A stretch of 64,000 nucleotides of DNA from Solirubrobacteraceae bacterium (GTDB lineage: Bacteria; Actinomycetota; Thermoleophilia; Solirubrobacterales; Solirubrobacteraceae), in assembly GCA_036513335.1 (NCBI GenBank), contig DATBZG010000080.1, positions 7,336 through 71,335 on the forward strand, read 5' to 3'. A program made the translations under genes and the position numbers. The notes below the pieces were generated by a model. It made no database searches. It saw only the letters and a list, made by a program, of their open reading frames with translations, and was not told the origin of the DNA. Shown in pieces: positions 10,091-29,188 of the stretch (position 1 is the first letter of the stretch; every line of letters starts with the position of its first letter).

Positions 10091-10098
10091 CAACGCGA

Positions 10099-10646: not shown

Positions 10647-11552
10647 TTGTCCATGCAACGCATCAACTCGATCTCCGAGCGCCCACGCGCGCTCATCGCG
10701 CTCATGCTCGCCGGGAGCACCTGGGGCTTGACGCTGCCGCTGTCGGCGGTGGCGCTCCGCGGCGTCGCCCCGGCGGCGCTCGTGAGCATTCGCTTCGGAT
10801 GCGCGGCGAGCATTCTCGCCGTCATCGCCCGTCGTGGGAGCCTGCGGGCGGCACTCACGTGGCGTATCGCCTGGTGGGGGGTGCTCGGCTACGGCGCTGT
10901 CGTGCTCACCCAGTGCGAGGGTGTCGAGCGTACGAGCCTCAGCCACGCGGCGGTCCTCGGCGGGATCGTTCCGGTGCTCGTGGTGCTGATTGCGATCGCG
11001 CGCGGCTGCCGGCGCCCCTCCGCGCTCGGGACGCTCGGATTGCTGGGCGCGGTCGGCGGTGCGGGGCTCTTCACGAGCGGCGGCGGCCACGCAAGTCTCG
11101 CCGGCGACGCCCTGGTGCTACTCGCCGGGGTCTGCTTCTCCTTCTACATCGTTGCCCAGCCCGCCTTGCTCGCCGGGCGCGACGCTGTCGCGGTGACGGC
11201 GGTCCAGATGGGCGCGGCCTCGATCGTGCTCGCGCCGATCGCCCTCTTCGCCGAGCCGGCGCCCCACATCTCCGGCTCGATCGCACTCGCACTGCTCGGC
11301 CTCGTGGTGGTCGGCTCGCTGCTGCCCTTCGCGCTCTACGCGTGGGGCCAGACCCGTGTGCCCCATGAGCTCGCCGGCGCGTTCCTAAACGTCGAGGCGC
11401 TCGTGGGCGGGTTGATCGGCGTCGTGGCGTTCCACAACCAGATGGGACTCGCGCAGGTGCTCGCGGTCGCCTTGATCGCTGCCGGGCTCTTGCTCGTTGC
11501 CGCCAGCGCGCCCTCCACGCAGGGGTCCGGAAGAGATATTCCGTCCTGCTGA
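10647..11552 (+). CDS. DMT-superfamily (EamA-like) transporter
   Basis: 301 aa with about 10 TM segments and a duplicated EamA-type organisation. It is divergent from the Lrp regulator. Confidence 0.85.
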   Translation: MSMQRINSISERPRALIALMLAGSTWGLTLPLSAVALRGVAPAALVSIRFGCAASILAVIARRGSLRAALTWRIAWWGVLGYGAVVLTQCEGVERTSLSHAAVLGGIVPVLVVLIAIARGCRRPSALGTLGLLGAVGGAGLFTSGGGHASLAGDALVLLAGVCFSFYIVAQPALLAGRDAVAVTAVQMGAASIVLAPIALFAEPAPHISGSIALALLGLVVVGSLLPFALYAWGQTRVPHELAGAFLNVEALVGGLIGVVAFHNQMGLAQVLAVALIAAGLLLVAASAPSTQGSGRDIPSC

Positions 11553-15548: not shown

Positions 15549-16415
15549 ATGCCGACAAGAACAAAGCTCGAGAGGGTAACCACGGTCAAGGACGAGGAGC
15601 CGGCCTGGTCGATTCCAGGCCTGCGTGAGCCGCGCTACTCGCAGTCGCTGGAGCGGGGTCTTGCGATCCTTGCTTGCTTCACCCCCAAGCGCCCGGTGCT
15701 GGGCATCGCGGACATCGCCGACGAGCTCGGCATGAGCCGCTCGACCACGCACCGCTATGTGATCACGCTCGTTGCGCTCGGCTACCTGGAGCAGGGCGCC
15801 TCGCGCAAGTACCGCTTGGGCCTGCGCGTGACGGACCTCGGCATGTCGGCGCTGAACTCGACGGGCCTGCGCGAGCACGCGCGCCCTTATCTGGAGGAGC
15901 TGCGCCAGCGAACCTCCTACACCGCGAGCCTGGGCGTGCTCGACGGCACCGAAGTGCTCTACATCGACCGCATACGGAGCTTTAGACGCGAAGCGCGCAG
16001 CGCCGACCTGGACCTCCATGCCGGCTCGCGGCTGCCCGCCCACGCCACGGCGATGGGCAAGCTGCTGCTCGCGAACCTTCCGCAGACGGAGCAGCGCGAA
16101 CTGATCGGACAGATGAAGCTGACCAAACGCGGCCCCAACACGATCACGAGCAAGAAGGCGCTGCGCGAGGAGCTCGACGCGATCGTCAGTTCCGGCCTTG
16201 GCGTGGACGACCAAGAGCTCGCGTCGGGGGTCTACGCAATCTCGGCGCCGGTGCGCAACGAGGCACGCCAGGTCGTGGCCGCCGTCAACCTCGCAGCCCA
16301 GTCGACGATGATCTCGCTGGAGGAGTTCGTGGACGCGCTCAGCCCGCACCTGCTCTCCACCGCGGACCGCGTTTCCGCGCGTCTGGGCTACAGGCGCGAC
16401 GACGAGACGAACTGA
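15549..16415 (+). CDS. IclR-family transcriptional regulator
   Basis: SLERGLAILACFTPKRPVLGIADIADELGMSRSTTHRYVITLVALGYLEQ is followed by an IclR effector domain (GVDDQELASGVYAISAPV). Confidence 0.9.
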   Translation: MPTRTKLERVTTVKDEEPAWSIPGLREPRYSQSLERGLAILACFTPKRPVLGIADIADELGMSRSTTHRYVITLVALGYLEQGASRKYRLGLRVTDLGMSALNSTGLREHARPYLEELRQRTSYTASLGVLDGTEVLYIDRIRSFRREARSADLDLHAGSRLPAHATAMGKLLLANLPQTEQRELIGQMKLTKRGPNTITSKKALREELDAIVSSGLGVDDQELASGVYAISAPVRNEARQVVAAVNLAAQSTMISLEEFVDALSPHLLSTADRVSARLGYRRDDETN

Positions 16416-18004
16416 GCGCTGCCGTCACCGGTGTCCTGCGCGAGCATCGCTGCTCGCCGCGCGGCGTGCTCGGCCATGAATGCGTCGATCACGCGCGGGT
16501 CGAACTGACTGCCGGCGCAGCTCTGCAGCTCGCGCAAGGCGTCTGCTTCGGATTTGGCTTCGCCGAAGGGGTGCTGGGAGATCATCGCGTCGAAGGAGTC
16601 GCATACGAACACGATCCTGCTGGCCAACGGGATCTCGTGACCGGCGAGGCCGCGCGGATAGCCGGCGCCGTCGTGACGCTCGTGCGTCGCCCCGACGATC
16701 TTGGCCACGCGCGCGAGCGCGGGAGCGGCGCTGAGGATGCTGGCGCCGATGATTGGGTGGCGGCGCATCAGCTCCCACTCGTGTTTGTCCAGCGGCCCAG
16801 TTTTGTGCAACACGGAGTAGGGAATCGCGACCTTGCCGATGTCGTGAAGCTCGGCAGCTCGGATCGCGTCTGAAAGGTCGGTGCCTTTCATGCCCAGACG
16901 CCGTGCCACGCCCTCGGTGAGCTCGGCGACGTGTGAGGCGTGCGCGTGCAGCACCGGCTCGTGCGCAGCCAGCAGCTGCAGCGCTAGATCGCGCGTCTGG
17001 CGCCCGGCGCTCGCGCGCCCGGAGTCCTTATAGGCGTACATGCGCTCGTCCGCCAGCTGTAGTGCGAGCTCGGGGTCGGCGGCCTCGGCGGGCAGCATCA
17101 CCGAGCCGTAGGAGCTCGTGATCGCGAAGCCTTCACCCTCTGCGCTCAGCGCCTGCAGGCAGTCGCCGACCATGCTCTCGCCGCAGTCGGAGCGGAGCAG
17201 CGCGCAGAACTCATCGCCGCCGAGCCGGTAGGCACGCCCGCCGCTGCCGACCGCCTGCTTGAACGCGCGGGAGAGGCGGCTCAGCAGCAGGTCGCCACCG
17301 AGATGTCCGAAGTTGTCGTTGTATGCCTTGAAGCCGTCGAGGTCGAACAGCAGCAGCCGTACGGGGTGATCCTCGGTGGCTTCCTTGGAGACGTCGTGCA
17401 GGTCCTCGGCCAGCTGTCGGCGGTTGGCAAGGCCTGTGAGCGGGTCGATCGTGGCCTCGCCGCGCTGGTGCAGCTCGGCCGTCTCCAGCGCCCAAACGAT
17501 CGAAACGACCGCGGTCAGCAGCGCGAGCGTGGTCAGGACGGGCACGGGGTCGTGAAGCGTCGAGCGCGCATCCACGCCGAGCGTCACCCCGATGATCACA
17601 GCGACGGTCAGCGCCAGACCGGCGATTACGACCTGCGGGCGAAAGCGCGCGGCGACCATCCCTGCCGGAAGCACCAGCCACGGCAGTGCGGGGCTACGCG
17701 GGCCACCACTCAGTACCACGCCGGCTGCGAGCAGCGCGAGCGTGAACAGGATCGCGCTGACGCTCACCCGCTCGGGGTGTGAGCTGCGCGCCATGCGCCG
17801 ATCCACGCTCAACAGGTTCAGTGCGGAGAGCGCGAACAGGATCAGCGTCCACCACCCCAGCCAGGGCGCGGAGATCAGAAGCGTCACTCCCACGGCCCCC
17901 GACCCGACGGTCCGGATCATGCGCACGCGCGGGCTCGCCTCGGTTACCCGCCTGCGCTCCTCCTCTGTGGGACAAAGCCAGCTCGCTGACATTTCACCAG
18001 CCAT
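16388..18004 (-). CDS. membrane-bound GGDEF + HD-GYP protein (diguanylate cyclase / c-di-GMP phosphodiesterase)
   Basis: About 5 TM helices, then YRLGGDEFCALL with no RxxD I-site upstream. The HD-GYP domain shows AELHDIGKVAIP and THERHDGAGYPRGL. The 3' end overlaps the iclR-like gene convergently by 28 nt. Confidence 0.9.
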   Translation of the reverse strand: MAGEMSASWLCPTEEERRRVTEASPRVRMIRTVGSGAVGVTLLISAPWLGWWTLILFALSALNLLSVDRRMARSSHPERVSVSAILFTLALLAAGVVLSGGPRSPALPWLVLPAGMVAARFRPQVVIAGLALTVAVIIGVTLGVDARSTLHDPVPVLTTLALLTAVVSIVWALETAELHQRGEATIDPLTGLANRRQLAEDLHDVSKEATEDHPVRLLLFDLDGFKAYNDNFGHLGGDLLLSRLSRAFKQAVGSGGRAYRLGGDEFCALLRSDCGESMVGDCLQALSAEGEGFAITSSYGSVMLPAEAADPELALQLADERMYAYKDSGRASAGRQTRDLALQLLAAHEPVLHAHASHVAELTEGVARRLGMKGTDLSDAIRAAELHDIGKVAIPYSVLHKTGPLDKHEWELMRRHPIIGASILSAAPALARVAKIVGATHERHDGAGYPRGLAGHEIPLASRIVFVCDSFDAMISQHPFGEAKSEADALRELQSCAGSQFDPRVIDAFMAEHAARRAAMLAQDTGDGSAQFVSSSRL

Positions 18005-18301
18005 TTCGTCCAGCGCTCGGGCAGCCTTGAGCAGTGCACCCGCCCGTTGGCCACTAGAGCTCCACGTACGCCCGGCAAGCCATTTCTGCTAGCCGAATCG
18101 ACGGCATACTCACAGCTCACGTTCACAGATGGCAGCCGAAAACTACCGCTTACATCATTGACACCACGATGTTGATATGTGATAAGCAAACTCAACATAT
18201 TTTTATTGTCAATAATGTTACGGCCACGCCACACGAGCCGATAATGGTGAAAGCTCACCGCGCGGATCAAGCAAGCGAGGGGCGCATCCGATACTGCCGC
18301 C

Positions 18302-21300
18302 ATGGGCAACGGACTGCTACCTCTTGCCTCGCCCCTGCGAGCGGGCGAGCGACGGGCTCTGGGCGTGGCCACCGCTCTACTAGTAGCGCTCGTCGCGGCG
18401 ACCGGTGTGCACGCCGCGTTCGGCATCGGCGGTCGCGCTGTGGAACAGCCGATCCGCGACTGGGTCACCTCGGCGATCTACATCCTCGTGGGCGTGCTCG
18501 TGTGCTGGCGTGCGGTGCGCAGTACCGAGGCGCGGCGCTCGTGGATGATCTTCGCGTTCGGCATCTCCATCTACGGCCTGGGTAACGTGCTGTGGGCCGC
18601 GTGGGTGGAACACCTCCCCAACCCGCCCATCCCCTCGGTCTGCGATGGCATGTGGCTGACGCTCTACCCGTGCTGCTACGTCGGCATCCTGGGGCTGGCG
18701 CGCGTCAAAGAGCGCCACGTTCCGGCGCGGATCTGGCTCGACGGTGTGATCGCAGGGCTTGGGGTGGCGGCGATCGGTGCGGCGATCGTGCTGCGCCCGG
18801 TGCTCGCAAGCGTCTCCGGCAACACTGCCGCGGTGATCACCGAGATGGCCTACCCGATCTGCGACCTGCTGCTGGCGGCGCTAGTCGTCGGTGTGCTCGC
18901 GCTGCGCGGCTGGCGCCTGGATCGGATGTGGGCGCTGCTCGGAGCCGGCTTCCTCGCGCTCGCCACCGCCGACTGCTTGTACGCGCTGCAGGTGGCGGGC
19001 GGCGCATCGGCGCCGAGCGCTGCCACGAACCTCGCATACGACGTCGGCGTGCTGGCGCTCGCACTCGCGGCGTGGCAGCCTGCGGCGGAGATCGAGGCCG
19101 ACCGCGTTCCGGGCGGCGCGGTGCTGGGGATTCCAGCGGCCTTCACCGCGAGCGCGCTCGGGCTGCTCGTCTATGACCACTTCATCCGTCTCGACCCGTT
19201 GGCGTTGGCGCTCGCGCTCGCCACGCTGATCGCGGCCTTCGCCCGCACCGGCCTCGCCTTCCGTGACGTTCGCGTGCTCGCGGAAACGCGCAAGCAGGCG
19301 CTCACCGACGACCTCACCTCGATGCCCAACCGCCGTCATTTCCTGCGGCGCCTGCGCGATGCCATCTCCGCCAGTCGCGCCGGCGACACCAGCCTCGCGC
19401 TGCTGCTGTTCGACCTCGACCGCTTCAAGGAGCTCAACGACACGCTCGGCCACGACGCCGGCGATCAGCTGCTCTGTCAGGTGGGCGAGCGGCTGCGCAC
19501 GATTCTGCGCTCGACGGACACAGCCGCACGTCTTGGCGGCGACGAGTTCGGCGTGCTGCTGTGGGGTCCCTGCGACATTGCGCGCGCGGAGCTGGTGGCG
19601 GACAAGATCCTCGCGGTCATCAGCCAGCCTTTCCCGATCAAGGGAGTGAACCTGCGCGTCACCGCCAGTATCGGCATCGCGCTCTTCCCCGAGCACGCCA
19701 CCAGCGACGAACAGCTGATGCAGCACGCCGACGTGGCGATGTACGAGGCCAAGAGCACTCAGTCGGGGCGCGTCTGCTACGCCAGTGAGCGCGACCAGCA
19801 CTCGCTGGAGCGCCTCACGCTTGCAGGGGAGATCTCCCGTGCGCTCAACTCTGACGAGATCGAAGCACACTTCCAGCCGAAGGCCGACGCCAGCAGCGGC
19901 AAGATCGTCGGCGTCGAGGCGCTGGTGCGCTGGCGCCACCCGGAGCGTGGCCTGGTCGGGCCGGGCGAGTTCGTCGCGGTGGCTGAACAGGCGGGCCTCG
20001 GTCGGGCGCTGACGCGCAGGATGCTGGAGCTGGCACTGGACCAGGTGAAGGCCTGGCGCGAAACGGGCATCTTCCTGCACGTCGCCGTCAACACAACGGT
20101 CGCCGACCTCCTGGACACCGAGTTCCCAGCAGAAGTCGCGGCGGCCCTCGCCGAGCGCGATCTCTCGCCGGATGTGCTCGTCCTCGAGGTCACCGAGAAC
20201 ATGGTCCTGTCGGACCCGATGCGCATCGGCGACGTGCTCGCGCAGCTCGGCGAGCTCGGGCTGGGCCTGTCGCTGGATGACTTCGGTACCGGCTACTCCT
20301 CACTTACGCACCTGAAGTCGCTGCCCGTCGGCGAGGTGAAGATCGACCGCTCGTTCGTCGCGCGCATGACCTCAGACCCGGTCGATGCAGCGATTGTCGA
20401 GGCGACGATCCAGCTCGCGCACAGCATTGGCAGCCGCGTCGTGGCGGAGGGCATCGAGGACCACGTTACGTGGAGCTCGCTGGTGGCCAACCGCTGCGAG
20501 CTTGTGCAGGGTTATGCCCTCTCGCGGCCGCTCCCGGCGGCCGCCCTGGAGGAGCTGCTGCGCGCCGAGCCGATCCCCACGGCGCCCGCCCGCATCGAGG
20601 TGGGCGCCGACTCCGCTTTTGCCCGCGCCGGTGAAGTCTCCCGGGACATCCCGGAGACGCTGCGTGAGCTCAGCGCGCTGAAGCGCTCGCACCCGATGAT
20701 GGACGCGGTCATCGACGAGATCGACGGGCGCATGATCCGCGTGGGCTCCAAGTGGCTTGCGGACTTCGCCTCGTGCAACTACCTCGGCTTCGATCTCGAG
20801 CGAGAGATCATCGACGCGGTGCCCGCCTACCTGGATGCGTGGGGCACGCACCCGAGCTGGTCGCGACTGCTGGGAAGCCCAGCGCCTTACGAGCAGATCG
20901 AGGAGCGCCTGACATCGCTGCTGGGAAGCCCCGACTCACTGGTGCTGGCGACGATCACGCACATCCACATGTCGGTGATCCCCGCGCTCGCCGCCTGCGG
21001 CACGATCTTCCTGGACTCCCGCTCGCACAAGACGATCTATGACGGCTGTCAGATGGCCACGACGCGCGGGGCGCGCGTGCAGCGCTTTCGCTTCGAAGAC
21101 CCGCAGCACCTGGACGAGCTGCTGCGCGCCGCACCGGGCGGGCGGCGGCTGGTGTGCATGGACGGCGTCAACAGCATGACCGGAAACGCCCCTGACCTGC
21201 CCGCCTTCGCGGCGGTGGCGCGCGCGCACGGAGCGCTCCTCTACGTGGACGACGCGCACGGCTTCGGCGTGATCGGTGAGCGTGGCCCGGACGAGCGCAG

Positions 21301-21946
21301 CCCGTATGGCATGCGCGGCAACAGCATCGTGCGCCACTGTGGCGAGACCTACGAGAACCTGATCCTGGTGGGTGGCTTCTCGAAGGCCTACTCCTCTCTG
21401 TTGGCGTTCATCGCGTGCCCGACCGAGATCAAGGAGATGCTGAAGGTCGCAGCGGCGCCCTACCTGTACTCCGGTCCCTCTCCGGTCGCGTCGTTGGCAA
21501 CCACGCTCGCGGGCTTCGACGTCAACGAGCGCCGCGGCGAGGAGCTGCGCGAGACGATCCACCGCCACACACGCCGCGTGCTCGACTGCCTGGAGCGCCT
21601 GGATGTGTTCACACCCAACTGCTCGGGTCTGCCGATCGTGGAGATCCCGCTGCGCGAGCACACGCGCATCGCCGCCGTCGGCCAGCTGCTGTTCGACCGC
21701 GGCGTATACGTCACGCTCGCCGCATACCCGCTGGTGCCACGCGATGAGGTCGGATTCCGCGTGCAACTGACCGCGGCCAACACGGATGCTGAAGTGGACA
21801 CGCTGATCGCAGCGCTGGAGGAGCTCGCGCAAATGGGCGAGCTGCAGCCGGCGAAGCGCCGCGCCGATGACGGAGATGCAGCGGCCGTCTACGGTCGCGC
21901 GAGCGTCCGCGCCGCCGTGCACGCGACACGCGCACCCGCAGCGTGA
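18302..21946 (+). CDS. four-part fusion protein: polytopic membrane sensor + GGDEF + EAL + alpha-oxoamine synthase (class-II aminotransferase fold, PLP)
   Basis: Uninterrupted 1214-codon ORF. RSTD I-site and GGDEF at 19535-19549; EAL at 19916-19924; DDFGTGYSS. The C-terminal ~400 aa carry NYLGF, DGVNSMTG, VDDAHGFGVIGERG and GGFSKAY (Lys at 21383-21385). Confidence 0.8.
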   Translation: MGNGLLPLASPLRAGERRALGVATALLVALVAATGVHAAFGIGGRAVEQPIRDWVTSAIYILVGVLVCWRAVRSTEARRSWMIFAFGISIYGLGNVLWAAWVEHLPNPPIPSVCDGMWLTLYPCCYVGILGLARVKERHVPARIWLDGVIAGLGVAAIGAAIVLRPVLASVSGNTAAVITEMAYPICDLLLAALVVGVLALRGWRLDRMWALLGAGFLALATADCLYALQVAGGASAPSAATNLAYDVGVLALALAAWQPAAEIEADRVPGGAVLGIPAAFTASALGLLVYDHFIRLDPLALALALATLIAAFARTGLAFRDVRVLAETRKQALTDDLTSMPNRRHFLRRLRDAISASRAGDTSLALLLFDLDRFKELNDTLGHDAGDQLLCQVGERLRTILRSTDTAARLGGDEFGVLLWGPCDIARAELVADKILAVISQPFPIKGVNLRVTASIGIALFPEHATSDEQLMQHADVAMYEAKSTQSGRVCYASERDQHSLERLTLAGEISRALNSDEIEAHFQPKADASSGKIVGVEALVRWRHPERGLVGPGEFVAVAEQAGLGRALTRRMLELALDQVKAWRETGIFLHVAVNTTVADLLDTEFPAEVAAALAERDLSPDVLVLEVTENMVLSDPMRIGDVLAQLGELGLGLSLDDFGTGYSSLTHLKSLPVGEVKIDRSFVARMTSDPVDAAIVEATIQLAHSIGSRVVAEGIEDHVTWSSLVANRCELVQGYALSRPLPAAALEELLRAEPIPTAPARIEVGADSAFARAGEVSRDIPETLRELSALKRSHPMMDAVIDEIDGRMIRVGSKWLADFASCNYLGFDLEREIIDAVPAYLDAWGTHPSWSRLLGSPAPYEQIEERLTSLLGSPDSLVLATITHIHMSVIPALAACGTIFLDSRSHKTIYDGCQMATTRGARVQRFRFEDPQHLDELLRAAPGGRRLVCMDGVNSMTGNAPDLPAFAAVARAHGALLYVDDAHGFGVIGERGPDERSPYGMRGNSIVRHCGETYENLILVGGFSKAYSSLLAFIACPTEIKEMLKVAAAPYLYSGPSPVASLATTLAGFDVNERRGEELRETIHRHTRRVLDCLERLDVFTPNCSGLPIVEIPLREHTRIAAVGQLLFDRGVYVTLAAYPLVPRDEVGFRVQLTAANTDAEVDTLIAALEELAQMGELQPAKRRADDGDAAAVYGRASVRAAVHATRAPAA

Positions 21947-23169
21947 TCGCCCGTTACCGCGCGCTGTTCTCGGTGCCGGGGTTCACTCGGCTGCTGGTCA
22001 GCTCAGTGCTCGCGAGGCTTCCTTCGGGCATGTTCTCGCTCGCGATCCTGCTGCTCATGCGGGCGCGCAGCGGCTCGTTTTTAGCGGCCGGAGTGGCGGT
22101 CGGCGCGTTCGCTCTCGCTGGGGCGCTGGCTGGCCCGCTTCTGGGTGCGCTGGTCGACCGCGTGGGCCAGACACGCGTGCTGGTGCCGGCCGCGCTCGCC
22201 CAGGGTCTGCTGCTCGTTGCGCTGGCGCTCGCCGCGCAGGACGGCGCACCGGTGACGGCGGTCGTGTCGCTCGCCGCGCTGGCGGGCGCCGTGCAGCCGC
22301 CGGTGGCGGGATGCATCCGCGCGCTGTGGTCGCAGCTGGCTGCAGACGAGCAGGCGCTGGAGACGGCATACGCGCTGGACGCGACGACGCAGGAGGTCAT
22401 CTGGACGCTCGGGCCGCTGCTGGTGGGCTCGACGGCCGTGCTCATCTCACCGGCGGCGGCGGTGCTGGCGTGCGCTCTCTTCACCGTCTGCGGCACCGCG
22501 TTCTTCGCCGCCTCAGAGCTGTCCAGCGGCTGGCGTGCGCAAGCGCGGGAGCGCTCGCGGGGCGGTGCGCTGGCGAGCCCAGGGCTGCGCGCGCTGCTGG
22601 TCACGGTGACGCTCGCGGGCGTGGTGATCGGAGCAGTGGAGGTGGGCCTGACAGCGCTGGCGGTCACGCACGACGCGCGCTGGGCGGCCGGCCCGCTGTT
22701 GGCGCTGTTCAGCATCGGCAGCATGGCGGGAGGGCTGATTTACTCCGCTGCTCGTTGGCGGCGAGCGATCGGGCTTCGCTACGTGGCGGTGCTGCTGGCG
22801 ACGGCGGTCGCGGTCTCGCCGCTGGTCGCCGTGCACGCACTCGCAGGCGCCTACCCGCTGGCGCTGCTGGCGGGCATGGGTGTGGCGCCGCTGCTCTCCT
22901 GCCAGTTCTCGCTGGTGGGAGCGCTCGCGCTGGCGGGCGCCCAGACGGAGGCGTTCACGTGGCAGCGCGGCGCAACGATCGCGGGGATGTCCGTCGGCTC
23001 GACGCTCGGCGGATCTCTGATCGACATACACGGGCCCGCCGGCGCATTTGCGCTCGGGTGCGCGGGTGTCGCACTGGCGGGAGCCCTGGCGATCCTCTGG
23101 CGCGGGCGGATCGAACCAGCACCGCGCGAGCCGGAGACGACCGGCGCACTGGAACTGGCCCACAGCTGA
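21943..23169 (+). CDS. MFS transporter
   Basis: GTG 21943 overlaps the upstream stop (GTGA). 408 aa with about 12 TM segments and an MFS-type N-terminus (FTRLLVSSVLARLPSGMFSLAILLL). Confidence 0.85.
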   Translation: MIARYRALFSVPGFTRLLVSSVLARLPSGMFSLAILLLMRARSGSFLAAGVAVGAFALAGALAGPLLGALVDRVGQTRVLVPAALAQGLLLVALALAAQDGAPVTAVVSLAALAGAVQPPVAGCIRALWSQLAADEQALETAYALDATTQEVIWTLGPLLVGSTAVLISPAAAVLACALFTVCGTAFFAASELSSGWRAQARERSRGGALASPGLRALLVTVTLAGVVIGAVEVGLTALAVTHDARWAAGPLLALFSIGSMAGGLIYSAARWRRAIGLRYVAVLLATAVAVSPLVAVHALAGAYPLALLAGMGVAPLLSCQFSLVGALALAGAQTEAFTWQRGATIAGMSVGSTLGGSLIDIHGPAGAFALGCAGVALAGALAILWRGRIEPAPREPETTGALELAHS

Positions 23170-23266
23170 CTGCTGACGGATCCCAATGGACGCTGACAGC
23201 GTCCGAGCGTGCGTCCAGCGCTGCGTTCAATACTCAACCTCAATCGAGTTATTCCGATACGGACGA

Positions 23267-25645
23267 ATGTCCACAGTCGCGACCGCGGTCGGTTCTCGTG
23301 CGCCAATGCCCGGTGGTCGGCGCGTGGTTTGGGTCGTTTTCGGGTTGATCGGGCTTCTGCTGGCGGCCTATTGCGGGTTCCTGATCGACCAGCCCAACCA
23401 CCAATACTCGACCTGGCTTGACGGCTGGAGCGTCGACGCCGTCGAGCTGATCGCTGGAGGCCTGTGCGTCGCCCAGGGCTTCATGCGCACCCGCGGGCGC
23501 GCCGTGCCGCTGGTGCTGGGCGCCTCGCTGTTGGCGTGGGCGCTCGGCGACGTGGTGCTGACGATCGAGTCCTTCAATGGCGCCACGCCTGCGACCCCGT
23601 CGCTGGCCGACGCCTTCTACCTCACCTTCTTCCCGCTCGCGTATGTGGCAGTGGTGCTGTTCATGCGCGGAGAGGTTCGCCGCATCAACAGCCCCAGCTG
23701 GCTCGACAGCGCCGTTGCCGGGTTGGGTGCGGCGTCGGTATGCGCAGCTTTCGCGTTCAAAAGCGTCGTCTCGGCGACCGGCGGCAGCGGCCTGGAAGTC
23801 GCGACGAACCTCGCCTACCCGGTCGGTGACCTGCTGCTGCTGATCCTGGTCGTGGGAAGCACGGCGATGCTCTCCGGGCGCAAAAAGACGCCCTGGGTGT
23901 TGCTGGCTTCGGGTATGGCGCTGAACGTCGTCGGCGACACCTTCAACCTGCTGGGCTCCTCCTCGGGCGTCGCGCACGTGGGCGCGGTCGTGAACGGCGT
24001 CGCCTGGCCGGTCTCGATCCTGGTGATGTCGATGGCGATGTGGGTGCCGAGCGGCCATGCCAACCCCTTCTCGCTGCCCAAGCCCCCCGGCTTCCTGCTG
24101 CCGGGCCTCGCGGCACTGGCGGGACTGATCGTGCTTGTGGTGGGTGCGCTCGACCACGACCAGGCCAACAGCGTGTCGGTGGGTCTCGCGACGGCGACGC
24201 TGGCGGTGGTCGGCGTGCGCCTGGCGATGTCGGTGCGCAGCCTGCGCACGCTCACCCACCGCCACGAGCACCATTCGCTGACCGATTACCTGACGGGCCT
24301 GGGTAACCGGCGTTATCTGTTTCACATCCTGAACGCGTTCTTCGCGGAGGCCGAGAGCTCGACGGCACAGGGGCGCCTGGCGTTCCTGTTCATCGACCTG
24401 AACCGCTTCAAGGAGATCAACGACTCCTTCGGCCACGGCGCGGGGGACGAAGTCCTGCGCCACATGGGTGAGCGCCTGAGCGGCGCACTGCGCCCGAGCG
24501 ACGCGCTCGTGCGCCTCGGCGGCGACGAGTTCGCGGCGGTGCTGCTGGAGGCGGATGCGCAGACGGCGGAGGCGATCGCCGCCCGCCTGTCGCAGAGCCT
24601 GAAGGACCCGTTCGCCCTGGATACGGTGAGCGTGAAGGTCGATGCGAGCATCGGCATCGCGCTGGCGCCGGAGCACGCGACCGGCACCCGGGCGCTTGTC
24701 TCGTGCGCTGATCTGGCGATGTACAAGGCCAAGTCCAGCGGCGCGCCGTTCGCCATGTATGAGGAGTCCCTCGCCGACGGCGGCGACCTGCTGCGCCTGG
24801 CAGAGGAGCTGAGCGAGGCGCTGGAGCAGGGCAATCTGCGCCTGCACTACCAGCCGCAGCTGAACCTGCGTACGGGCGAGGCGCTGGCCAGCGAGGTGCT
24901 GATTCGCTGGGAACACCCGACGCTCGGGTCGATCCCGCCGCTTAAGTTCCTGCCGCTGGCAGAGCAGGCGGGGCTGATGGGCAGCCTCACGAACTGGGTG
25001 CTGGAAGAGGCGCTTGCGCAGTGCGCCAAGTGGCGTACGGAGGGCAGCCAGCAGGCGGTGTCTGTGAACGTGTCACCGTCGAACCTGCTGGAACCGGGCT
25101 TCACAGAGATGGTCAAAGACCAGCTGGCGCTGAACTCCCTGCCGGCGGCGGCGCTCGTGCTGGAGATCACCGAGACGAGCATCATCACGGATTTCGAGCG
25201 CGCGAAGGTGGTGATCGACGAGCTCTCGGAGTTCGGCGTGGTCGTCTCGGTGGATGACTTCGGCACGGGCTTCACCTCGCTTGCCTACCTGAGCAGCCTG
25301 GCTGTGCGCGAGCTGAAGCTGGACCAGACGTTCACCACTCACGTGGCGCACCGCGACAAGCAGCTGGTGCGCTCCACAATCGAGCTGGGGCACGCGCTCG
25401 GGCTTCGCGTGGTGGCAGAGGGCGTCGAGGACGCGGAGACGCTGGCGCTCTTGACAGAGCTCGGCTGCGACGTCGGCCAGGGCTTCTTCATCGGCGTTCC
25501 CGAGCCCCCGCTGGCGCCGCCGTCGAGCGATCTCGCGACCGCGACTCCGAATGTGAGAACCCCCGCGCCCGTGGATGAGCGCCTCGATCCCACGCGCTCG
25601 GTGGGGCTCCTCGCAACACCGCGTAAGCGCACGATCAAAGCCTGA
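23267..25645 (+). CDS. membrane sensor GGDEF-EAL protein, paralogue of the N-terminal three-quarters of 18302..21946
   Basis: RPSD I-site plus RLGGDEFAAVL. The EAL motif is present as EVL (24893-24901), followed by DDFGTGFTS. The membrane domain aligns by eye with that of 18302 (WLD..AGLG, LAYP.GDLLL). The start is ATG 23267; the ORF begins at 23186. Confidence 0.85.
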   Translation: MSTVATAVGSRAPMPGGRRVVWVVFGLIGLLLAAYCGFLIDQPNHQYSTWLDGWSVDAVELIAGGLCVAQGFMRTRGRAVPLVLGASLLAWALGDVVLTIESFNGATPATPSLADAFYLTFFPLAYVAVVLFMRGEVRRINSPSWLDSAVAGLGAASVCAAFAFKSVVSATGGSGLEVATNLAYPVGDLLLLILVVGSTAMLSGRKKTPWVLLASGMALNVVGDTFNLLGSSSGVAHVGAVVNGVAWPVSILVMSMAMWVPSGHANPFSLPKPPGFLLPGLAALAGLIVLVVGALDHDQANSVSVGLATATLAVVGVRLAMSVRSLRTLTHRHEHHSLTDYLTGLGNRRYLFHILNAFFAEAESSTAQGRLAFLFIDLNRFKEINDSFGHGAGDEVLRHMGERLSGALRPSDALVRLGGDEFAAVLLEADAQTAEAIAARLSQSLKDPFALDTVSVKVDASIGIALAPEHATGTRALVSCADLAMYKAKSSGAPFAMYEESLADGGDLLRLAEELSEALEQGNLRLHYQPQLNLRTGEALASEVLIRWEHPTLGSIPPLKFLPLAEQAGLMGSLTNWVLEEALAQCAKWRTEGSQQAVSVNVSPSNLLEPGFTEMVKDQLALNSLPAAALVLEITETSIITDFERAKVVIDELSEFGVVVSVDDFGTGFTSLAYLSSLAVRELKLDQTFTTHVAHRDKQLVRSTIELGHALGLRVVAEGVEDAETLALLTELGCDVGQGFFIGVPEPPLAPPSSDLATATPNVRTPAPVDERLDPTRSVGLLATPRKRTIKA

Positions 25646-25689
25646 CGTTGGCGGCCGGCTGCCGGCCCGTAGTATCCGGGCGGTGAGCG

Positions 25690-26925
25690 GTGAGCGGTGA
25701 GCGAGAACTCGACGTGGTCCTGTTCGGCGCCACCAGCTTCGTCGGGCGCCTGACCGCTGAATATCTCGCCCGCGCGGCGCCGCCGCAGACGCGCATCGGC
25801 TTGGCGGGCCGCTCGCAGCAGCGTCTGCAGGATTTGCAGGCGTCGATCGGCGAGCCCGCCACGCACTGGCCGCTGTTCGTCGCCGACTCAGGCGATGCGC
25901 AGGCGCTCGAGAAGCTCGCGCTGAGCACGCGTGTTCTGGCCACCACCGTCGGCCCCTACCGCCGATACGGGCTGGAGGTAGCCGGCGCGTGCGCGAGCGC
26001 CGGCACGCACTACGCGGACCTCACGGGGGAGGTGCTGTTCATGCGCGAGACGATCGACCGCTTCGACGCGATCGCCAAGGAGAGCGGCGCGCGGATCGTG
26101 CACAGCTGCGGCTTTGACTCGATCCCCTCGGACCTGGGCGTGCTGGCACTGCACGAGGCGGCGGCGGCGGACGGCACGGGCGAGCTGGAGGACACCACGC
26201 TGGTCGTGCGTGCGATGAAGGGCGGCGCGAGCGGCGGCACGGTCGCATCGCTGAAGGACACGATCGACGACGCCCGCGGCGACCGCCGGCTGGCGCGGAC
26301 GCTGCTGGACCCCTACGCGCTCAGCCCGGACCGCGAGGCCGAGCCGAGCCTCGGCGCGGAGGGCGACATGCGCACGATCTCCAATGACCGAACCCTCGGG
26401 ATGTGGATCGCCCCATTCATCATGGGCACGATCAACACGCGCGTGGTGCGCCGCAGCAACGCGCTTCAGGACTGGGCGTACGGACGGCGCTTTCGCTATC
26501 GCGAGGTGATGGGCTTCGGCTCGGGCCCACTGGCCGCCGCACGGGCTGGTGCGGTCGCGGGCGGCGTCCTCGCGCTCGCGGCGGGCCTTGCCATCCCGCC
26601 CTCGCGCATGGTTCTGGACCGAGCTCTGCCCTCCCCCGGCGAGGGTCCCAGCGAGAGCCAACGCCGCAGCGGCTTCTTCCGCATCGAGCTCCACACGCGC
26701 ACCTCCAGCGGCGCGCGCTACCTGTGTCGCGTGGCCCAGCAGGGCGACCCTGGCTATCTGGCGACATCGGTGATGTTCGGCGAGAGCAGCCTGTGCCTGG
26801 CGCACGACGGTGAGAGCCTGCCGGCGCGTGCGGGGGTGCTGACGCCGGCCACGGCGATGGGCGACGCGCTGATCGAGCGCCTGCGCGCGGCGGGGCAGAC
26901 GCTCGAGGTCGAGCGGGTCTCCTGA
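25690..26925 (+). CDS. saccharopine dehydrogenase-like NAD(P)-binding oxidoreductase (enoyl-reductase-like)
   Basis: Rossmann motif VVLFGATSFVGRLTAEYL with the family-typical HSCGFDSIPSDLG. The start is GTG. Confidence 0.8.
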   Translation: MSGERELDVVLFGATSFVGRLTAEYLARAAPPQTRIGLAGRSQQRLQDLQASIGEPATHWPLFVADSGDAQALEKLALSTRVLATTVGPYRRYGLEVAGACASAGTHYADLTGEVLFMRETIDRFDAIAKESGARIVHSCGFDSIPSDLGVLALHEAAAADGTGELEDTTLVVRAMKGGASGGTVASLKDTIDDARGDRRLARTLLDPYALSPDREAEPSLGAEGDMRTISNDRTLGMWIAPFIMGTINTRVVRRSNALQDWAYGRRFRYREVMGFGSGPLAAARAGAVAGGVLALAAGLAIPPSRMVLDRALPSPGEGPSESQRRSGFFRIELHTRTSSGARYLCRVAQQGDPGYLATSVMFGESSLCLAHDGESLPARAGVLTPATAMGDALIERLRAAGQTLEVERVS

Positions 26926-27824
26926 TGAGCGAGGGCCTCGTGAAGGTGAACGGCATCGAGCTGAACGTCCTCGACAAAGGCGAGGGCCCACTGGTCGTTC
27001 TCTGCCACGGCTTCCCCGAGCTGGCGTTCTCATGGCGCAGACAGATCCCAGCCCTCGTCCAGGCGGGCTACCGCGTGCTCGCCCCCGACATGCGCGGCTA
27101 TGGCGCGAGCTCGGCGCCGGCGGCGATCGAGGACTACGACATCGTCTCGCTGTGCGGCGACATGAGCGGTCTGCTGGACGCTTTGGACGAGCCCTCGGCG
27201 GTGTTCGTGGGGCACGACTGGGGCGCGAACGTCGTCTGGCAGATGGCGGTCCTTCACCCTGAGCGCGTGCGTGCGGTGGCAGGCTTGAGCGTGCCCTTCA
27301 CTCCCCGCGCGCCTGCGCATCCGCTGCCGATCATGCGCCGCCACCTGGGCGAGGACTTCTACATCATCCGCTTCCAGGAGCCGGGCGTGGCCGAGGCAGC
27401 GCTATCGCGTGATGTGCGACGCACGTTCCTGCGCATGTTCGGACCACCGGCGCCGCTCGACCTCGAGGGACGGATGAGCCAGGGTGCGACCGAGCGCCCT
27501 GAGTGGATCACCGAGGATGAGCTGTCGGTGTACGTGGAGACGTTCACGCGCACGGGCTTCGCCGGCGGACTGAACTGGTATCGCAACATCGACCGCAACT
27601 GGGAGCTCACCGAGCCGGTGGGCGAGCGCCGTGTCGAGCAGCCGTCGCTGTTCCTCACGGGCGAGGTGGACGTCGTGCGCCAGTTCATGCCGGCGCAGGT
27701 GATGGACGGCTGGGTCACGGACATGCGTGCGAGCGTGGTCGTGCCCGATGCTGGTCACTGGGTACAGCAGGAGCAGCCTGATGCGGTGAACGCGGCACTG
27801 CTGAGCTTTCTGGGCGAAGTGTGA
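26925..27824 (+). CDS. alpha/beta hydrolase, epoxide-hydrolase type
   Basis: The ATG overlaps the upstream stop (ATGA). HGFPELAFSWRRQ (HGXP oxyanion motif) and GHDWGA (Asp nucleophile). Confidence 0.85.
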   Translation: MSEGLVKVNGIELNVLDKGEGPLVVLCHGFPELAFSWRRQIPALVQAGYRVLAPDMRGYGASSAPAAIEDYDIVSLCGDMSGLLDALDEPSAVFVGHDWGANVVWQMAVLHPERVRAVAGLSVPFTPRAPAHPLPIMRRHLGEDFYIIRFQEPGVAEAALSRDVRRTFLRMFGPPAPLDLEGRMSQGATERPEWITEDELSVYVETFTRTGFAGGLNWYRNIDRNWELTEPVGERRVEQPSLFLTGEVDVVRQFMPAQVMDGWVTDMRASVVVPDAGHWVQQEQPDAVNAALLSFLGEV

Positions 27825-27866
27825 GAGCGTAAGCTCCGCCGCTCACCGCGAACCCAGGAGCGCCAC

Positions 27867-28145
27867 ATGGCTGATGCCCCCACGCTGTTTGTCTGTCATG
27901 GCGATGAAGGCGGACCGAAGATGCACCCCTGTCGCCGCGCCCAGGAGGCGCTGCACGCGGCGGGCATCGACTACGAGAAGGTGATCGCCGCGCATGGCTC
28001 TCCGATCCCCTTCCTGCGCAAAGGCTCGCGCGAGGAGCTCGAGAAGGCGACCGGCGAGAAGAAGCTCCCGGCGATGAAACTCGCAGACGGGACTGTCCTC
28101 ACCCACTCAGGCGCGATCCTCGCTTGGGTCGCAGAGCAGGGGTAG
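27867..28145 (+). CDS. glutaredoxin/GST-N-terminal-like thioredoxin-fold protein
   Basis: 92 aa with LFVCHGDEGGPKMHPCRRAQEALHAAGIDYEKV and KLPAMKLADGTVL, the pattern of a small thioredoxin fold. Confidence 0.6.
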   Translation: MADAPTLFVCHGDEGGPKMHPCRRAQEALHAAGIDYEKVIAAHGSPIPFLRKGSREELEKATGEKKLPAMKLADGTVLTHSGAILAWVAEQG

Positions 28146-28186
28146 GACGTAGCGTCGGCCAGACCACGCGGCTCGCCGGCGGCAAC

Positions 28187-29188
28187 TCAGACCACCCCCA
28201 CCCCCTGCGCTCCTACCCGCGGCCCCTGCACGACAGACGGCTCCTCGGACTCGGCGCTGTGGCTCGCGGCCACGAACTGCCGCACCGGGAACAGCGCGAG
28301 CGCAAGCAGTACGAACAGCGGCCCGGCGTTGAAGTCGGTCGCGCCTTCGCTCCAGAACGGCCCGCCGAGATCCTGCCCGTAGAGCCAGTAGGCGAGCGAC
28401 AGCACGATCCCGATTGCCAGCGCCGGCCAGCGAAGCGGCGTCCAGACGCCAATTGCGACAGCCAAGGAGACGACCGCCAGCACGACCGCGATCGTCGTCC
28501 CGTGGCCGACCGTGTGCCTGGCGAGGGAGTCCTGGACGCTGGCCAGCCAGTGCGGCGAGGCTCCGGCCATTTCGACGATCATCCCGTGCGTCGCTTCCTT
28601 TGCGCGGTTGACGTTCGCCAGCCACAGCCCCGCGGAGAGCACCCACAGGCCCGACCAGAACCACAGCCCGCCGCTGTCGCCGAGCGGGCCGAGCGCGGAG
28701 GGCGAGCGCCCCTCGCGCTTGTCTGTCGGCCATACGAGCAGGCCGATGATCGCGTAGATGATCACCGCTCCGGGAGCGCCCATCAACGGCGAGGGCATCG
28801 TGTTCGAGGTCAGCCCGCCGAAGCCCTCGCCGAACCACCACACGTAGATCGCCCAGGCGAAGGACACCGTCAGCGCCGGCTTGACGAGCCTCTTGCTGGA
28901 CATCAGCGCGAGGCCCACCGCGATCTGGATCTCGCCGGACAGCGAGTTCCACAGCGTGAGGTCGCGACCGTAGAAGTCATCCAGCGTGCGCATCGGGTCG
29001 CCGACGATCGCCGGCTGCCCGTGCATCGCCGGTTCGAAGACTTCCGTGACGATGTTGTGCGTGAACATGAAGCTCTTGAACTGGAACAGCCCGTCGAGCA
29101 ACCACACCAATCCAAGTGCGATCTGGATCCCGCGTGCCGTGACGAGCGGGCCGCGGATCTTGCGTTCTGCTTCCACGACGGCGCTCAT
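28187..29188 (-). CDS. polytopic membrane protein of unknown function
   Basis: 333 aa with about 7 hydrophobic segments. ATG 29188 overlaps the stop of the upstream gene (ATGA), so the two are co-translated. Confidence 0.7.
   Translation of the reverse strand: MSAVVEAERKIRGPLVTARGIQIALGLVWLLDGLFQFKSFMFTHNIVTEVFEPAMHGQPAIVGDPMRTLDDFYGRDLTLWNSLSGEIQIAVGLALMSSKRLVKPALTVSFAWAIYVWWFGEGFGGLTSNTMPSPLMGAPGAVIIYAIIGLLVWPTDKREGRSPSALGPLGDSGGLWFWSGLWVLSAGLWLANVNRAKEATHGMIVEMAGASPHWLASVQDSLARHTVGHGTTIAVVLAVVSLAVAIGVWTPLRWPALAIGIVLSLAYWLYGQDLGGPFWSEGATDFNAGPLFVLLALALFPVRQFVAASHSAESEEPSVVQGPRVGAQGVGVV

Follow-up and report, generated by a model that had tools for sequence, protein, structure and literature searches.

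In Vibrio and Legionella, the gene for a PLP enzyme of the alpha-oxoamine synthase (AOS) fold, CqsA or LqsA, adjoins the gene for a polytopic-membrane receptor, CqsS or LqsS, and the lipophilic product of the enzyme is the ligand of the receptor (PMC3376566, PMC3285556). When grafted onto a nucleotide cyclase, the membrane receptor of CqsS can drive that enzyme (PMC4821796). The inputs of the membrane-bound Streptomyces proteins CdgC and CdgF are explicitly stated to be unknown (PMC6205966, PMC13232838). CdgF of S. venezuelae (vnz02140) is a membrane-bound 10TM-PAS-PAC-GGDEF-EAL protein of undefined function (PMC6205966; PMC13232838).

The window analyzed here is a 64,000-nucleotide stretch of a contig from a soil actinobacterium (Solirubrobacteraceae), and one of its genes joins a membrane sensor, GGDEF and EAL domains, and an AOS domain. 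The loci examined resemble the CqsA and LqsA systems in that an AOS gene adjoins a gene for a polytopic-membrane sensor. However, the sensor output is GGDEF/EAL rather than a histidine kinase, the ~10-helix membrane domain is from an unrelated family, and a single polypeptide can contain both synthase and sensor. The AOS is also distant from CqsA (50 bits by PDB profile; PRK07179 82 bits, cut-off 428). In Streptomyces, Kitasatospora, and Dactylosporangium, the AOS-linked sensors are CdgF-like by architecture alone, with both motifs intact, whereas the window protein lacks the PAS region of CdgF and carries an AOS on the same chain. The usual fusion partners of c-di-GMP turnover enzymes are sensor domains and not biosynthetic enzymes, and few membrane-bound GGDEF/EAL proteins have a known input. 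The preliminary description did not recognize this architecture. We likewise found no description of c-di-GMP turnover domains combined with an AOS in full-text searches, including those on Streptomyces c-di-GMP enzymes and CqsA, but other genomes have this architecture too. The domains and motifs of the fused gene, the motifs being located in the translation, are as follows.

18302..21946, + strand: fused TM sensor-GGDEF-EAL-linker-AOS gene, an ATG ORF of 1214 codons (ORF listing, translation)
18302..19291, + strand: N-terminal polytopic membrane domain, aa 1-330 (AlphaFold model, hydropathy)
19298..19765, + strand: GGDEF diguanylate cyclase domain, aa 333-488 (Pfam E 1e-44)
19508-19519, + strand: RSTD (I-site)
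19535-19549, + strand: GGDEF motif
19829..20530, + strand: EAL phosphodiesterase domain, aa 510-743 (Pfam E 5e-65)
19916-19924, + strand: EAL motif
20276-20302, + strand: DDFGTGYSS
20507-20536, + strand: QGYALSRPLP
20537..20647, + strand: inter-domain linker, aa 746-782 (orthologue comparison)
20648..21859, + strand: AOS domain, aa 783-1186 (Pfam Aminotran_1_2, PDB match, AlphaFold model)
20696, + strand: MM
20777-20791, + strand: NYLGF
21161-21184, + strand: DGVNSMTG
21245-21286, + strand: AOS motif VDDAHGFGVIGERG
21371-21391, + strand: GGFSKAY
21383-21385, + strand: AAG codon of the predicted PLP Schiff-base lysine, Lys1028 (counterpart of the SK(A/W) lysine of Thermus AOS by alignment)

The only stop codon in 18302-21946 is the terminal one (translation of 1214 aa), so the uninterrupted ORF of the preliminary description was reproduced, and every motif coordinate in it was recovered exactly. 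Its domain assignments were upheld by Pfam (E 1e-44 for GGDEF, 5e-65 for EAL, and 4.5e-27 for Aminotran_1_2, which matches residues 864-1172). Hydropathy peaks and the AlphaFold model agree that residues ~1-330 are polytopic.

The GGDEF domain scored 152 bits with PF00990 (gathering cut-off 23.8), and its GGDEF motif and RxxD I-site are intact. Among fused orthologues, R..D-GGDEF is conserved in 31/31, and the substrate motifs D.D.FK..ND and GH..GD are each conserved in 30/31. By profile and by active-site, metal/substrate, and I-site motifs, this domain is a predicted diguanylate cyclase. The EAL domain scored 220 bits with PF00563 (cut-off 31.3), and EAL, VAVN, EVTE, DDFGTG[YF]SS, KIDRSF, EGIE, and QGY are present in 31/31 fused orthologues; profile and the full set of catalytic motifs predict a c-di-GMP phosphodiesterase. 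Tandem GGDEF-EAL proteins often use only one of the two activities.

The membrane domain was modeled with about 10 helices (AlphaFold, pLDDT 88, pTM 0.84). It had no Pfam match at E<=10 and no fold match in the PDB (best E 0.3). Conserved motifs are PPIPSxCDxxWLxLYP and AYPxxDLLL, and P111, S112, D115, P185, D188, G216, D224, and Y227 are invariant. Other proteins combine this domain with HisKA/HATPase or with GGDEF-HD-GYP; it is a modular input domain that histidine kinases and HD-GYP proteins also carry, and its family is undescribed.

The AOS domain (PF00155, 95.6 bits) includes a conserved N-terminal helix, IPETLRELSALKRSHPMMDAV, and its best PDB match is Thermus AOS (ThAOS, 7poa/8s1y; about 29% identity). 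Its model (AlphaFold, pLDDT 80) shares the full AOS fold with ThAOS, KBL, BioF, and bacterial serine palmitoyltransferase (SPT) at TM 0.80-0.84 and about 24-29% identity. Shared as well are the PLP lysine, stacking histidine, Asp-His pair, and carboxylate-binding arginine, found by alignment and motifs as K1028, H909 (SRSHKTI), D984/H986 (DDAHG), and R1153 (GFRVQ). Compared with these enzymes, the domain carries an insertion, ERSPYGMRGNSIVRHCGETYEN, and Gly replaces the phosphate-binding Thr three residues before the lysine (GFSK instead of T-x-S-K). The His, DGVNSMTG, DDAHGFG, and GFSK motifs occur in 31/31 fused orthologues, and the carboxylate-binding motif GFR[VI]Q in 28/31; no PLP Lys, His, or Asp residue was missing from the alignment. 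As modeled, the domain is a complete enzyme fold with catalytic Lys, His, Asp-His, and carboxylate Arg, which agrees with its earlier reading as a complete AOS and makes it catalytically plausible. We know of no characterized member of the ThAOS, KBL, BioF, or SPT type that is fused to signaling domains.

The AOS domain missed all NCBIfam equivalog cut-offs. The best model was bioF TIGR00858 (193-197 bits against 426.45), SPT equivalogs gave 181, 155, and 136 bits against cut-offs of 500-670, and the CqsA/LqsA model PRK07179 gave 82 against 428. By these curated models, it is not BioF, SPT, or CqsA. A profile search of the PDB with the clade profile gave 166 bits for ThAOS, 144-154 for bacterial SPTs, which were among the best matches, and 50 for CqsA. 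Outside the clade, the nearest AOS domains are C-terminal in FAAL-ACP-AOS and PKS-AOS proteins (38-43% identity, 300-340 bits), a relationship consistent with an acyl-thioester, probably longer-chain, substrate. The window protein likewise places its AOS at the C-terminus of a large multidomain protein; however, the N-terminal partners in those proteins supply the acyl substrate (adenylation, ACP, KS-AT), whereas here they are a membrane sensor and c-di-GMP enzymes, with no carrier protein. The same AOS subfamily also occurs as a standalone protein of ~416-443 aa in many genera, and some sources name relatives 8-amino-7-oxononanoate synthase.

A protein identical to the fused one is present on three public contigs, two of which (a k141_728135 record and a METAG scaffold) come from two ENA samples, and nine further proteins of 1212-1214 aa, encoded on other contigs, belong to its 90% cluster. 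Of the 42 related loci compared (clade A), most are from species-representative Solirubrobacterales genomes. In 35/42, EAL and AOS are in the same frame without a stop, and the complete fused ORFs (n=32) encode 1196-1428 aa. The distance between QGYALSRP and HPMMD ranges over 23 different lengths (171-396 nt), each a multiple of 3. The linker in fused orthologues (49-124 aa) is hypervariable, low-complexity, and disordered, with pairwise identity of 0.34, whereas the four domains each have 0.83-0.88. The fused architecture occurs in many species and is common in one Solirubrobacterales clade, and the fused state spans a deep clade of the AOS tree. The in-frame state in 35/42 loci with 23 spacings, together with a variable linker between conserved domains and motifs, argues that selection maintains the fusion; judged by sequence comparison, the ORF is a genuine single polypeptide that is evolutionarily maintained.

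Gene order around AOS genes indicates that the fusion is the extreme form of an Actinomycetota-wide module, in which a polytopic-membrane GGDEF-EAL protein is paired with this AOS subfamily, in many cases together with an MFS transporter. The GGDEF-EAL and AOS genes are fused, overlapping (ATGA or TGATG), or in reverse order. A sister subclade has them separate with an ATGA overlap, and more distant Solirubrobacterales have AOS, then TM-PAS-GGDEF-EAL, then MFS_3. In cultured Streptomyces sp. NBC_01220, Kitasatospora cinereorecta, and Dactylosporangium fulvum, TM-PAS-GGDEF-EAL lies directly upstream of AOS, with a TGATG overlap in the first two. A separate fused TM-PAS-GGDEF-EAL-AOS form of ~1500 aa occurs in cultured Streptomyces, and this PAS-containing version carries a generic name in RefSeq genomes of Streptomyces. 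Locus L051 is the only informative locus without an adjacent GGDEF-EAL gene. MFS_3, a different MFS family from that in the window, lies 3' of the module in B-type loci and Dactylosporangium, and Streptomyces loci have no adjacent MFS gene. By Rosetta-stone logic, fused, overlapping, and reverse-order pairs across lineages argue that the GGDEF-EAL and AOS genes are functionally linked; these comparative data give linkage, not direction.

The genes and site flanking the fused gene in the window are listed below.

16388..18004, - strand: GGDEF-HD-GYP gene, divergently transcribed (Pfam, locus comparison)
18172..18201, + strand: sigma-70-like promoter match about 100 nt upstream of the start codon (motif scan, weak evidence)
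21943..23169, + strand: MFS_1 transporter gene, with a GTG start overlapping the TGA stop of the fused gene (GTGA)
23186..25645, + strand: paralogous TM-GGDEF-EAL gene without AOS (Pfam)

Nearly every clade-A locus with sufficient downstream sequence has an MFS gene 3' of AOS. The membrane domain of the paralogue is of the same family as that of the fused protein (27% identity, E 8e-31), and this gene was found only in the closest relatives, L004 and L005. The GGDEF-HD-GYP gene recurs beside the module in the window's subclade (79-96% identity), upstream and divergent in L004, L006, L008, L010, L015, L016, and L018 and downstream in L011. The promoter match was the only one in 17900-28200 (1 found against 0.5 expected), and no terminator-like sites were detected through 28200. 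As described previously, biotin, heme, and sphingolipid genes were absent from the window ORFs scanned, and the conserved module has no bio genes.

Dimerization is obligatory for AOS enzymes, and the activity of GGDEF and EAL domains is dependent on dimer geometry. We propose, with a probability of about 0.4, an autocrine or quorum-type loop in which a dimer anchored in the membrane links the turnover of c-di-GMP to production of an aminoketone-type molecule for export. The fused protein would be a homodimer, since its AOS, GGDEF, and EAL activities all require dimers. From an amino acid and an acyl thioester, its AOS would form by condensation a small, probably lipophilic molecule of the alpha-aminoketone type, and the translationally coupled MFS protein would export it, a step suggested by two unrelated MFS families that each overlap the module. 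The membrane domain would sense this product, or a membrane state created by it, and switch the GGDEF/EAL pair between c-di-GMP synthesis and degradation; the exported molecule would probably be a signal. The logic would be analogous to CqsA/CqsS and LqsA/LqsS, with c-di-GMP as output and with synthase and receptor in one chain in this clade. Counting against such a loop are the distance of the AOS from CqsA/LqsA by sequence, the Streptomyces loci without an adjoining MFS gene, the Gly for Thr three residues before the PLP lysine, and the frequent use of a single activity by tandem GGDEF-EAL proteins. It is unusual in quorum sensing for a signal synthase to be on its own receptor. Possible, but doubtful, is the wider proposal of an unrecognized Actinomycetota-wide signaling system (cell-cell or autocrine), in which AOS-made, MFS-exported alpha-aminoketone-derived molecules would act through new 10-helix receptors with c-di-GMP output, receptor and synthase having fused at least twice independently, in several lineages.

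Control could run in reverse. The membrane domain might sense an unrelated cue, with the c-di-GMP state (I-site occupancy, EAL dimer conformation) gating the tethered AOS; the second-messenger level would then decide when an aminoketone metabolite is synthesized and exported. The I-site conserved in 31/31 orthologues, the constant position of AOS C-terminal to EAL in fused forms, and the occurrence of the membrane domain on proteins without AOS nearby (the window paralogue, histidine kinases) fit this arrangement. However, the long, variable, low-complexity linker (49-124 aa) is a poor conduit for allosteric coupling, and no covalent link is needed where the genes are unfused or in reverse order. 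We regard this direction of control as unlikely.

Synthesis of a membrane-lipid building block (a sphingoid-like long-chain base or aminolipid precursor) by the AOS, with the membrane domain monitoring the bilayer, is quite unlikely. The protein would then serve envelope homeostasis, and flipping or export of lipid would be the role of the MFS protein. The SPT scores in both the PDB and NCBIfam searches, the fit of a lipophilic product to membrane tethering, and the ACP-bound acyl chains used by the nearest outside relatives agree with a lipid role, but all SPT cut-offs were missed widely (181 against 500), and the conserved module has no ceramide synthase, reductase, or ACP genes.

It is improbable that the AOS was recruited as a cytoplasmic sensor or dimerization module that reads amino-acid or acyl-CoA pools and tunes GGDEF/EAL, its product being irrelevant. 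Its obligate dimerization would suit the dependence of GGDEF and EAL on dimer geometry, but the catalytic Lys, His, and Asp-His are strictly conserved, the subfamily also exists as standalone enzymes, and co-transcribed exporters imply a product. That the AOS is a housekeeping BioF or KBL joined by chance to a neighboring signaling gene is highly improbable: bioF is the top NCBIfam model and some annotations of relatives agree, but the score is far under the cut-off, bio genes are absent from the module, and linkage to GGDEF-EAL is conserved across classes. Finally, the suggestion in the preliminary description of an assembly artefact or a recent stop-codon loss, here also taken as a sequencing artefact or a very recent, functionally neutral loss between adjacent genes, is rejected and effectively refuted by the identical ORF in independent assemblies and by in-frame fusion across a deep clade despite hypervariable linkers, although relatives with separate, overlapping genes exist and some long-read MAG loci have frameshifts here (L001, L002, L033, L034, L039).

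Two lineages have the c-di-GMP enzyme covalently coupled to a PLP enzyme that forms carbon-carbon bonds, and the GGDEF-EAL and AOS genes are directly adjacent in the other lineages examined (L051 is the informative exception). Fusion and adjacency imply that turnover of the second messenger is directly tied to the making of a specific small molecule. Should the ligand be the AOS product, the module would provide a family of receptors together with a class of ligand. Genetic and chemical testing is possible because the module is present in culturable Streptomyces, Kitasatospora, and Dactylosporangium. The fusion points to an undescribed link between c-di-GMP signaling and small-molecule synthesis and, if the proposed loop is true, it would be a c-di-GMP-coupled counterpart to CqsA/LqsA signaling in Gram-positive soil bacteria.

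Positions 18302-21946 (+) form one ATG-initiated open reading frame of 1214 aa, with zero internal stops in the ORF listing and in the translation, as the preliminary description had proposed. Its assignment of GGDEF, EAL and alpha-oxoamine synthase (AOS) parts is borne out by three Pfam domains, with Aminotran_1_2 representing the AOS part, and a motif check of the fused ORF reproduced each of its motif coordinates exactly. DDFGTGYSS, QGYALSRPLP, NYLGF, DGVNSMTG, VDDAHGFGVIGERG, and GGFSKAY were all found.

Features of the fused gene
aa 333-488 (+), GGDEF domain (Pfam, E 1e-44)
aa 510-743 (+), EAL domain (Pfam, E 5e-65)
aa 864-1172 (+), Aminotran_1_2 domain (Pfam, E 4.5e-27)
19508-19549 (+), RSTD and GGDEF motifs (motif check)
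19916-19924 (+), EAL motif (motif check)
20696 (+), MM (motif check)
21383-21385 (+), AAG codon of Lys1028, the candidate PLP lysine (motif check)

G+C content is even over the fused ORF, including the junction (0.67-0.71), except in the first ~200 nt. The downstream MFS_1 transporter gene starts with a GTG that shares bases with the fused gene's TGA stop (GTGA, 21943-21946). No c-di-GMP riboswitch was detected, as Rfam gave no match at all over the whole window, and a scan of 17900-28200 yielded zero terminators and one weak promoter-like site that was not above chance.

A scan with the AOS part over one genome per GTDB species gave 485 confirmed relatives, and the best 80 of these were examined; all are from uncultured Solirubrobacterales, Solirubrobacteraceae or Thermoleophilaceae MAGs, or from MAGs labelled at higher rank, and the top AOS relative is 93% identical. 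In the window's clade, 35 of 42 loci have the end of the EAL domain (QGYALSRP) and the start of the AOS domain (HPMMDAV) in a single stop-free frame, and the spacing between them takes 23 distinct values from 171 to 396 nt, all multiples of three. Complete fused ORFs (n=32, 1196-1428 aa) were recovered from SPRUCE, SMAG k141 and NODE assemblies as well as from MFD MAG assemblies, whose contigs are megabase-scale. The EAL-AOS linkers of the fused orthologues have a mean identity of only 34%, compared with 83-88% for the membrane, GGDEF, EAL and AOS domains. They are of low complexity, with expanded NG, NGH and NGHS repeats of up to 124 aa (e.g., related loci L013, L022 and L026), and this segment (equivalent to window 20537-20647) varies even between closely related species. 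In a linker that is otherwise unconstrained, indels that repeatedly preserve the frame are the signature of selection to keep the reading frame open.

Three contigs in public data encode the identical 1214-aa protein; two of them, when read back, come from two different ENA samples (record k141_728135 and a METAG scaffold), and nine more proteins of 1212-1214 aa, encoded on other contigs, fall into its 90%-identity cluster. In a neighbor-joining tree of AOS domains the fused state spans a deep monophyletic clade, indicating that it is old. Cleanly unfused members are confined to one nested subclade (L003=L025, L020, L032), in which the gene pair overlaps by ATGA. Isolated frame breaks (L033, L034, and parts of L001, L002 and L039) fall within the GGDEF-EAL part or the linker, the EAL-AOS junction is still in frame wherever readable, and these breaks look like sequencing (indel) errors or local decay. 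Gene calls at such frame-broken MAG loci yield misleading EAL+AOS proteins of 549-571 aa. The identical public ORFs, the in-frame junctions and the deep clade thus rule against the preliminary caution that the fusion was a recent stop loss or an assembly artefact. The fused ORF is a real, selected single chain that joins a sensor-like membrane domain, both c-di-GMP enzymes and a complete AOS. An internal start giving a separate AOS product was rejected, as neither a conserved Met/Val nor a Shine-Dalgarno sequence lies ahead of the conserved N-terminal helix of the AOS in the fused orthologues; unfused AOS proteins also conserve the MM at 20696 internally.

Motif conservation was scored across 31 fused orthologues. 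All 31 have the RxxD I-site, placed five residues before GGDEF, and D.D.FK..ND and GH..GD are each found in 30/31. EAL, VAVN, EVTE, DDFGTG[YF]SS, KIDRSF, EGIE and QGY of the EAL domain are present in all 31, as are the stacking His ([SA]R[SA]HKTI), DGVNSMTG, DDAHGFG and the Schiff-base GFSK of the AOS domain. Over its full length the AOS domain can be aligned to Thermus thermophilus AOS (ThAOS; 7poa/8s1y) at ~29% identity, and its model, built from 25 homologues (pLDDT 80), has TM scores of 0.80-0.84 to ThAOS, KBL, BioF and SPT. Motifs, alignment and predicted fold all support the earlier claim of a complete AOS domain. The residue at Lys-3 is Gly; most AOS enzymes carry a phosphate-binding Thr at this position. 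With GGDEF, EAL and AOS motifs intact, all three catalytic activities are plausible.

Curated NCBIfam models place the AOS domain below every equivalog cut-off: bioF (197 bits; cut-off 426), three SPT models (181, 155 and 136 bits; cut-offs 500-670), KBL (149 bits; cut-off 460), ALAS (103 bits; cut-off 339) and CqsA-type (82 bits; cut-off 428). Identity as a BioF, SPT or CqsA equivalog was rejected because these scores are far under the cut-offs. Against PDB, the subfamily profile scored ThAOS 166 > SPT 154 > KBL 144 > BioF 121 > ALAS 105 >> CqsA 50 bits. When residues 505-1190 were searched against 1.84 billion representative proteins, the nearest AOS outside the clade had 38-43% identity (300-340 bits) and were C-terminal domains of FAAL-ACP-AOS (~1090 aa) and PKS-AOS proteins, which carried generic names only in a cluster look-up. 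Since no curated model was reached and outside relatives stand at 38-43%, the AOS is assigned by homology to a distinct subfamily, whose closest relatives are predicted to take carrier-bound acyl chains.

Residues ~1-330 form a polytopic membrane domain, as first read from the sequence; hydropathy and an AlphaFold model agree on this (~10 helices, pLDDT 88, pTM 0.84). The domain matched no Pfam family at E<=10, and a Foldseek search of its model against PDB gave no significant match (best E 0.3; rhodopsin-like TM only ~0.4). Its invariant intramembrane Pro/Ser/Asp residues are P111, S112, D115, P185, D188 and D224. The same domain is joined elsewhere to HisKA/HATPase and GGDEF-HD-GYP outputs, and is found in the window's own TM-GGDEF-EAL paralogue, so it appears to behave as a modular signal-input domain.

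Gene neighborhoods were compared using tblastn maps of all loci with Pfam checks, and two arrangements were found in Solirubrobacterales. In arrangement A, that of the window, TM-GGDEF-EAL is fused to or overlaps AOS and is followed by MFS_1. In arrangement B, an AOS gene (443 aa) is followed after 2 bases by TM-PAS-GGDEF-EAL (~1050 aa) and an overlapping MFS_3 gene; the B-type membrane domain is 25-30% identical to the window's. Orthology of the window MFS gene to the B-type MFS_3 was rejected (E 0.01). Gene order indicates translational coupling of the sensor-AOS pair to exporter genes, which come from two unrelated MFS families. One B-type locus, L051, is the only adequately flanked locus without an adjoining GGDEF-EAL. 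At 7247-11453 of this locus, AOS is followed by a 649-aa ORF with no Pfam match and then by an ORF with receiver, CHASE3, HAMP and HisKA/HATPase domains, which may be an alternative sensor partner.

The same AOS subfamily is a widespread ~416-aa protein (~60-67% identical to the window's) in Streptomyces, Kitasatospora, Dactylosporangium, Paractinoplanes, Actinospica and Nocardioidaceae. A TM-PAS-GGDEF-EAL gene (998-1060 aa) lies immediately upstream of AOS in Streptomyces sp. NBC_01220, Kitasatospora cinereorecta and Dactylosporangium fulvum. These three sensors share the membrane motifs PFPSxxDxxYLxxYP and AYPLGDV and have intact EAL motifs; GGDEF and the I-site were matched in the Streptomyces and Dactylosporangium sensors, and the search pattern was unmatched in the Kitasatospora protein. 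The sensor stop overlaps the AOS start (TGATG) in the first two species, and an MFS_3 gene follows AOS in D. fulvum. A cluster of cultured Streptomyces (including WP_338059894.1 and WP_055516048.1) encodes a fused TM-PAS-GGDEF-EAL-AOS protein of ~1500 aa, annotated only as "aminotransferase class I/II-fold PLP-dependent enzyme" and sharing 47% identity with the window protein across 909 residues. It was the only other EAL+AOS protein in the best 150 representatives, a set in which weaker double matches would be missed. The PAS region is kept in this fusion, as in unfused Streptomyces neighbors, and is absent from the window's clade, so domain content makes two or more separate fusion events the most likely history. 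The c-di-GMP protein and AOS are encoded by linked genes in two Actinomycetota classes, in three topologies, and these genes have been fused more than once.

In Streptomyces and Kitasatospora, the sensor-AOS pair or fused gene is directly downstream of an exopolysaccharide-like cluster (L084 806-7764; L088 1-3755; L089 1-3720). In L084 and L085 this cluster comprises genes for GT2 glycosyltransferase, epimerase, UDP-glucose dehydrogenase, second epimerase and Beta_helix proteins; L088 and L089 both start inside the UDP-glucose dehydrogenase gene. Exopolysaccharide-type clusters are typical targets of c-di-GMP control. A 246-aa protein is encoded after AOS in Streptomyces sp. NBC_01220 and Kitasatospora (L088 8271-9011; L089 8262-9008), and only a 19-aa remnant of it follows the fused Streptomyces gene. 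Its match to the NNMT/PNMT/TEMT amine N-methyltransferase family is weak and below threshold (E 1e-3, 18.9 bits, cut-off 25); it may act in the tailoring of an amine product.

Besides the fused gene, the window carries an unusually large number of nucleotide-second-messenger genes.

Other genes of the window
259-2406 (+), phospholipase-C-type phosphoesterase with C-terminal collagen triple-helix repeat (domain scan)
7390-9204 (-), GGDEF-EAL gene (Pfam)
16388-18004 (-), GGDEF-HD-GYP gene (Pfam)
23186-25645 (+), TM-GGDEF-EAL paralogue (Pfam)
25690-27824 (+), saccharopine-dehydrogenase-like and alpha/beta-hydrolase genes, downstream of the paralogue, same strand, terminator-like site absent
31904-34930 (-), class III cyclase fused to AAA_16 (Pfam)

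The saccharopine-dehydrogenase-like gene is common to both closest relatives (L004 and L005), and the alpha/beta-hydrolase gene was seen in L004 only, the L005 locus ending before that position. As the 25690-27824 genes are shared only with the closest relatives, they are outside the conserved module. Near the Streptomyces fused gene there is likewise a phosphoesterase, with a PLipase_C_C domain (L084 15245-17314); the presence of phosphoesterases near both is probably coincidence.

Recurrent fusion of adjacent genes indicates that their products act together (Rosetta-stone logic). AOS enzymes are obligate dimers that form an alpha-aminoketone from an amino acid and an acyl thioester, and GGDEF and EAL activities depend on dimer geometry. 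We suggest that the fused protein would be a membrane-anchored dimer, that its AOS would make an aminoketone-type, probably lipophilic, molecule, that the MFS pump would export it, and that the membrane domain would sense it and set the DGC/PDE balance. We give this model as a whole a tentative probability of about 40%. Gating of AOS by c-di-GMP state is an unlikely alternative, as the long, variable linker speaks against tight allostery. The variable linker and the reverse-order arrangement lead us to favor co-localization and stoichiometry as the selected benefit of linkage. Synthesis of a membrane-lipid precursor within an envelope-homeostasis loop is somewhat less probable than gating, and a role for AOS as metabolic sensor or dimerizer is improbable. 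A housekeeping BioF fused by chance is highly improbable, and an artefact or neutral recent stop loss is hardly credible.

The AOS of Vibrio (CqsA) and Legionella (LqsA) produces a lipophilic signal, which an adjoining polytopic-membrane receptor reads (PMC3376566, PMC3285556), and that receptor can regulate a nucleotide cyclase onto which it is grafted (PMC4821796). The module described here resembles CqsA/CqsS in layout only. Streptomyces CdgF is a 10TM-PAS-PAC-GGDEF-EAL protein with both motifs intact, whose function "still needs to be defined" (PMC6205966, PMC13232838); AOS-linked Streptomyces sensors share its architecture. In the full-text literature searched, including work on CqsA and on Streptomyces c-di-GMP enzymes, neither a GGDEF/EAL-AOS protein nor such a gene pair was found described. 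The preliminary impression of an unrecognized architecture therefore stands for the literature searched, although the architecture recurs in many genomes, including cultured Streptomyces. By homology, the individual parts of the fused protein belong to known families; what is new is that a multidomain c-di-GMP enzyme has a biosynthetic partner without precedent, in a conserved undescribed module. The GGDEF-EAL-AOS architecture would be surprising to a c-di-GMP specialist, and because the module occurs in culturable actinomycetes, it is directly testable there.
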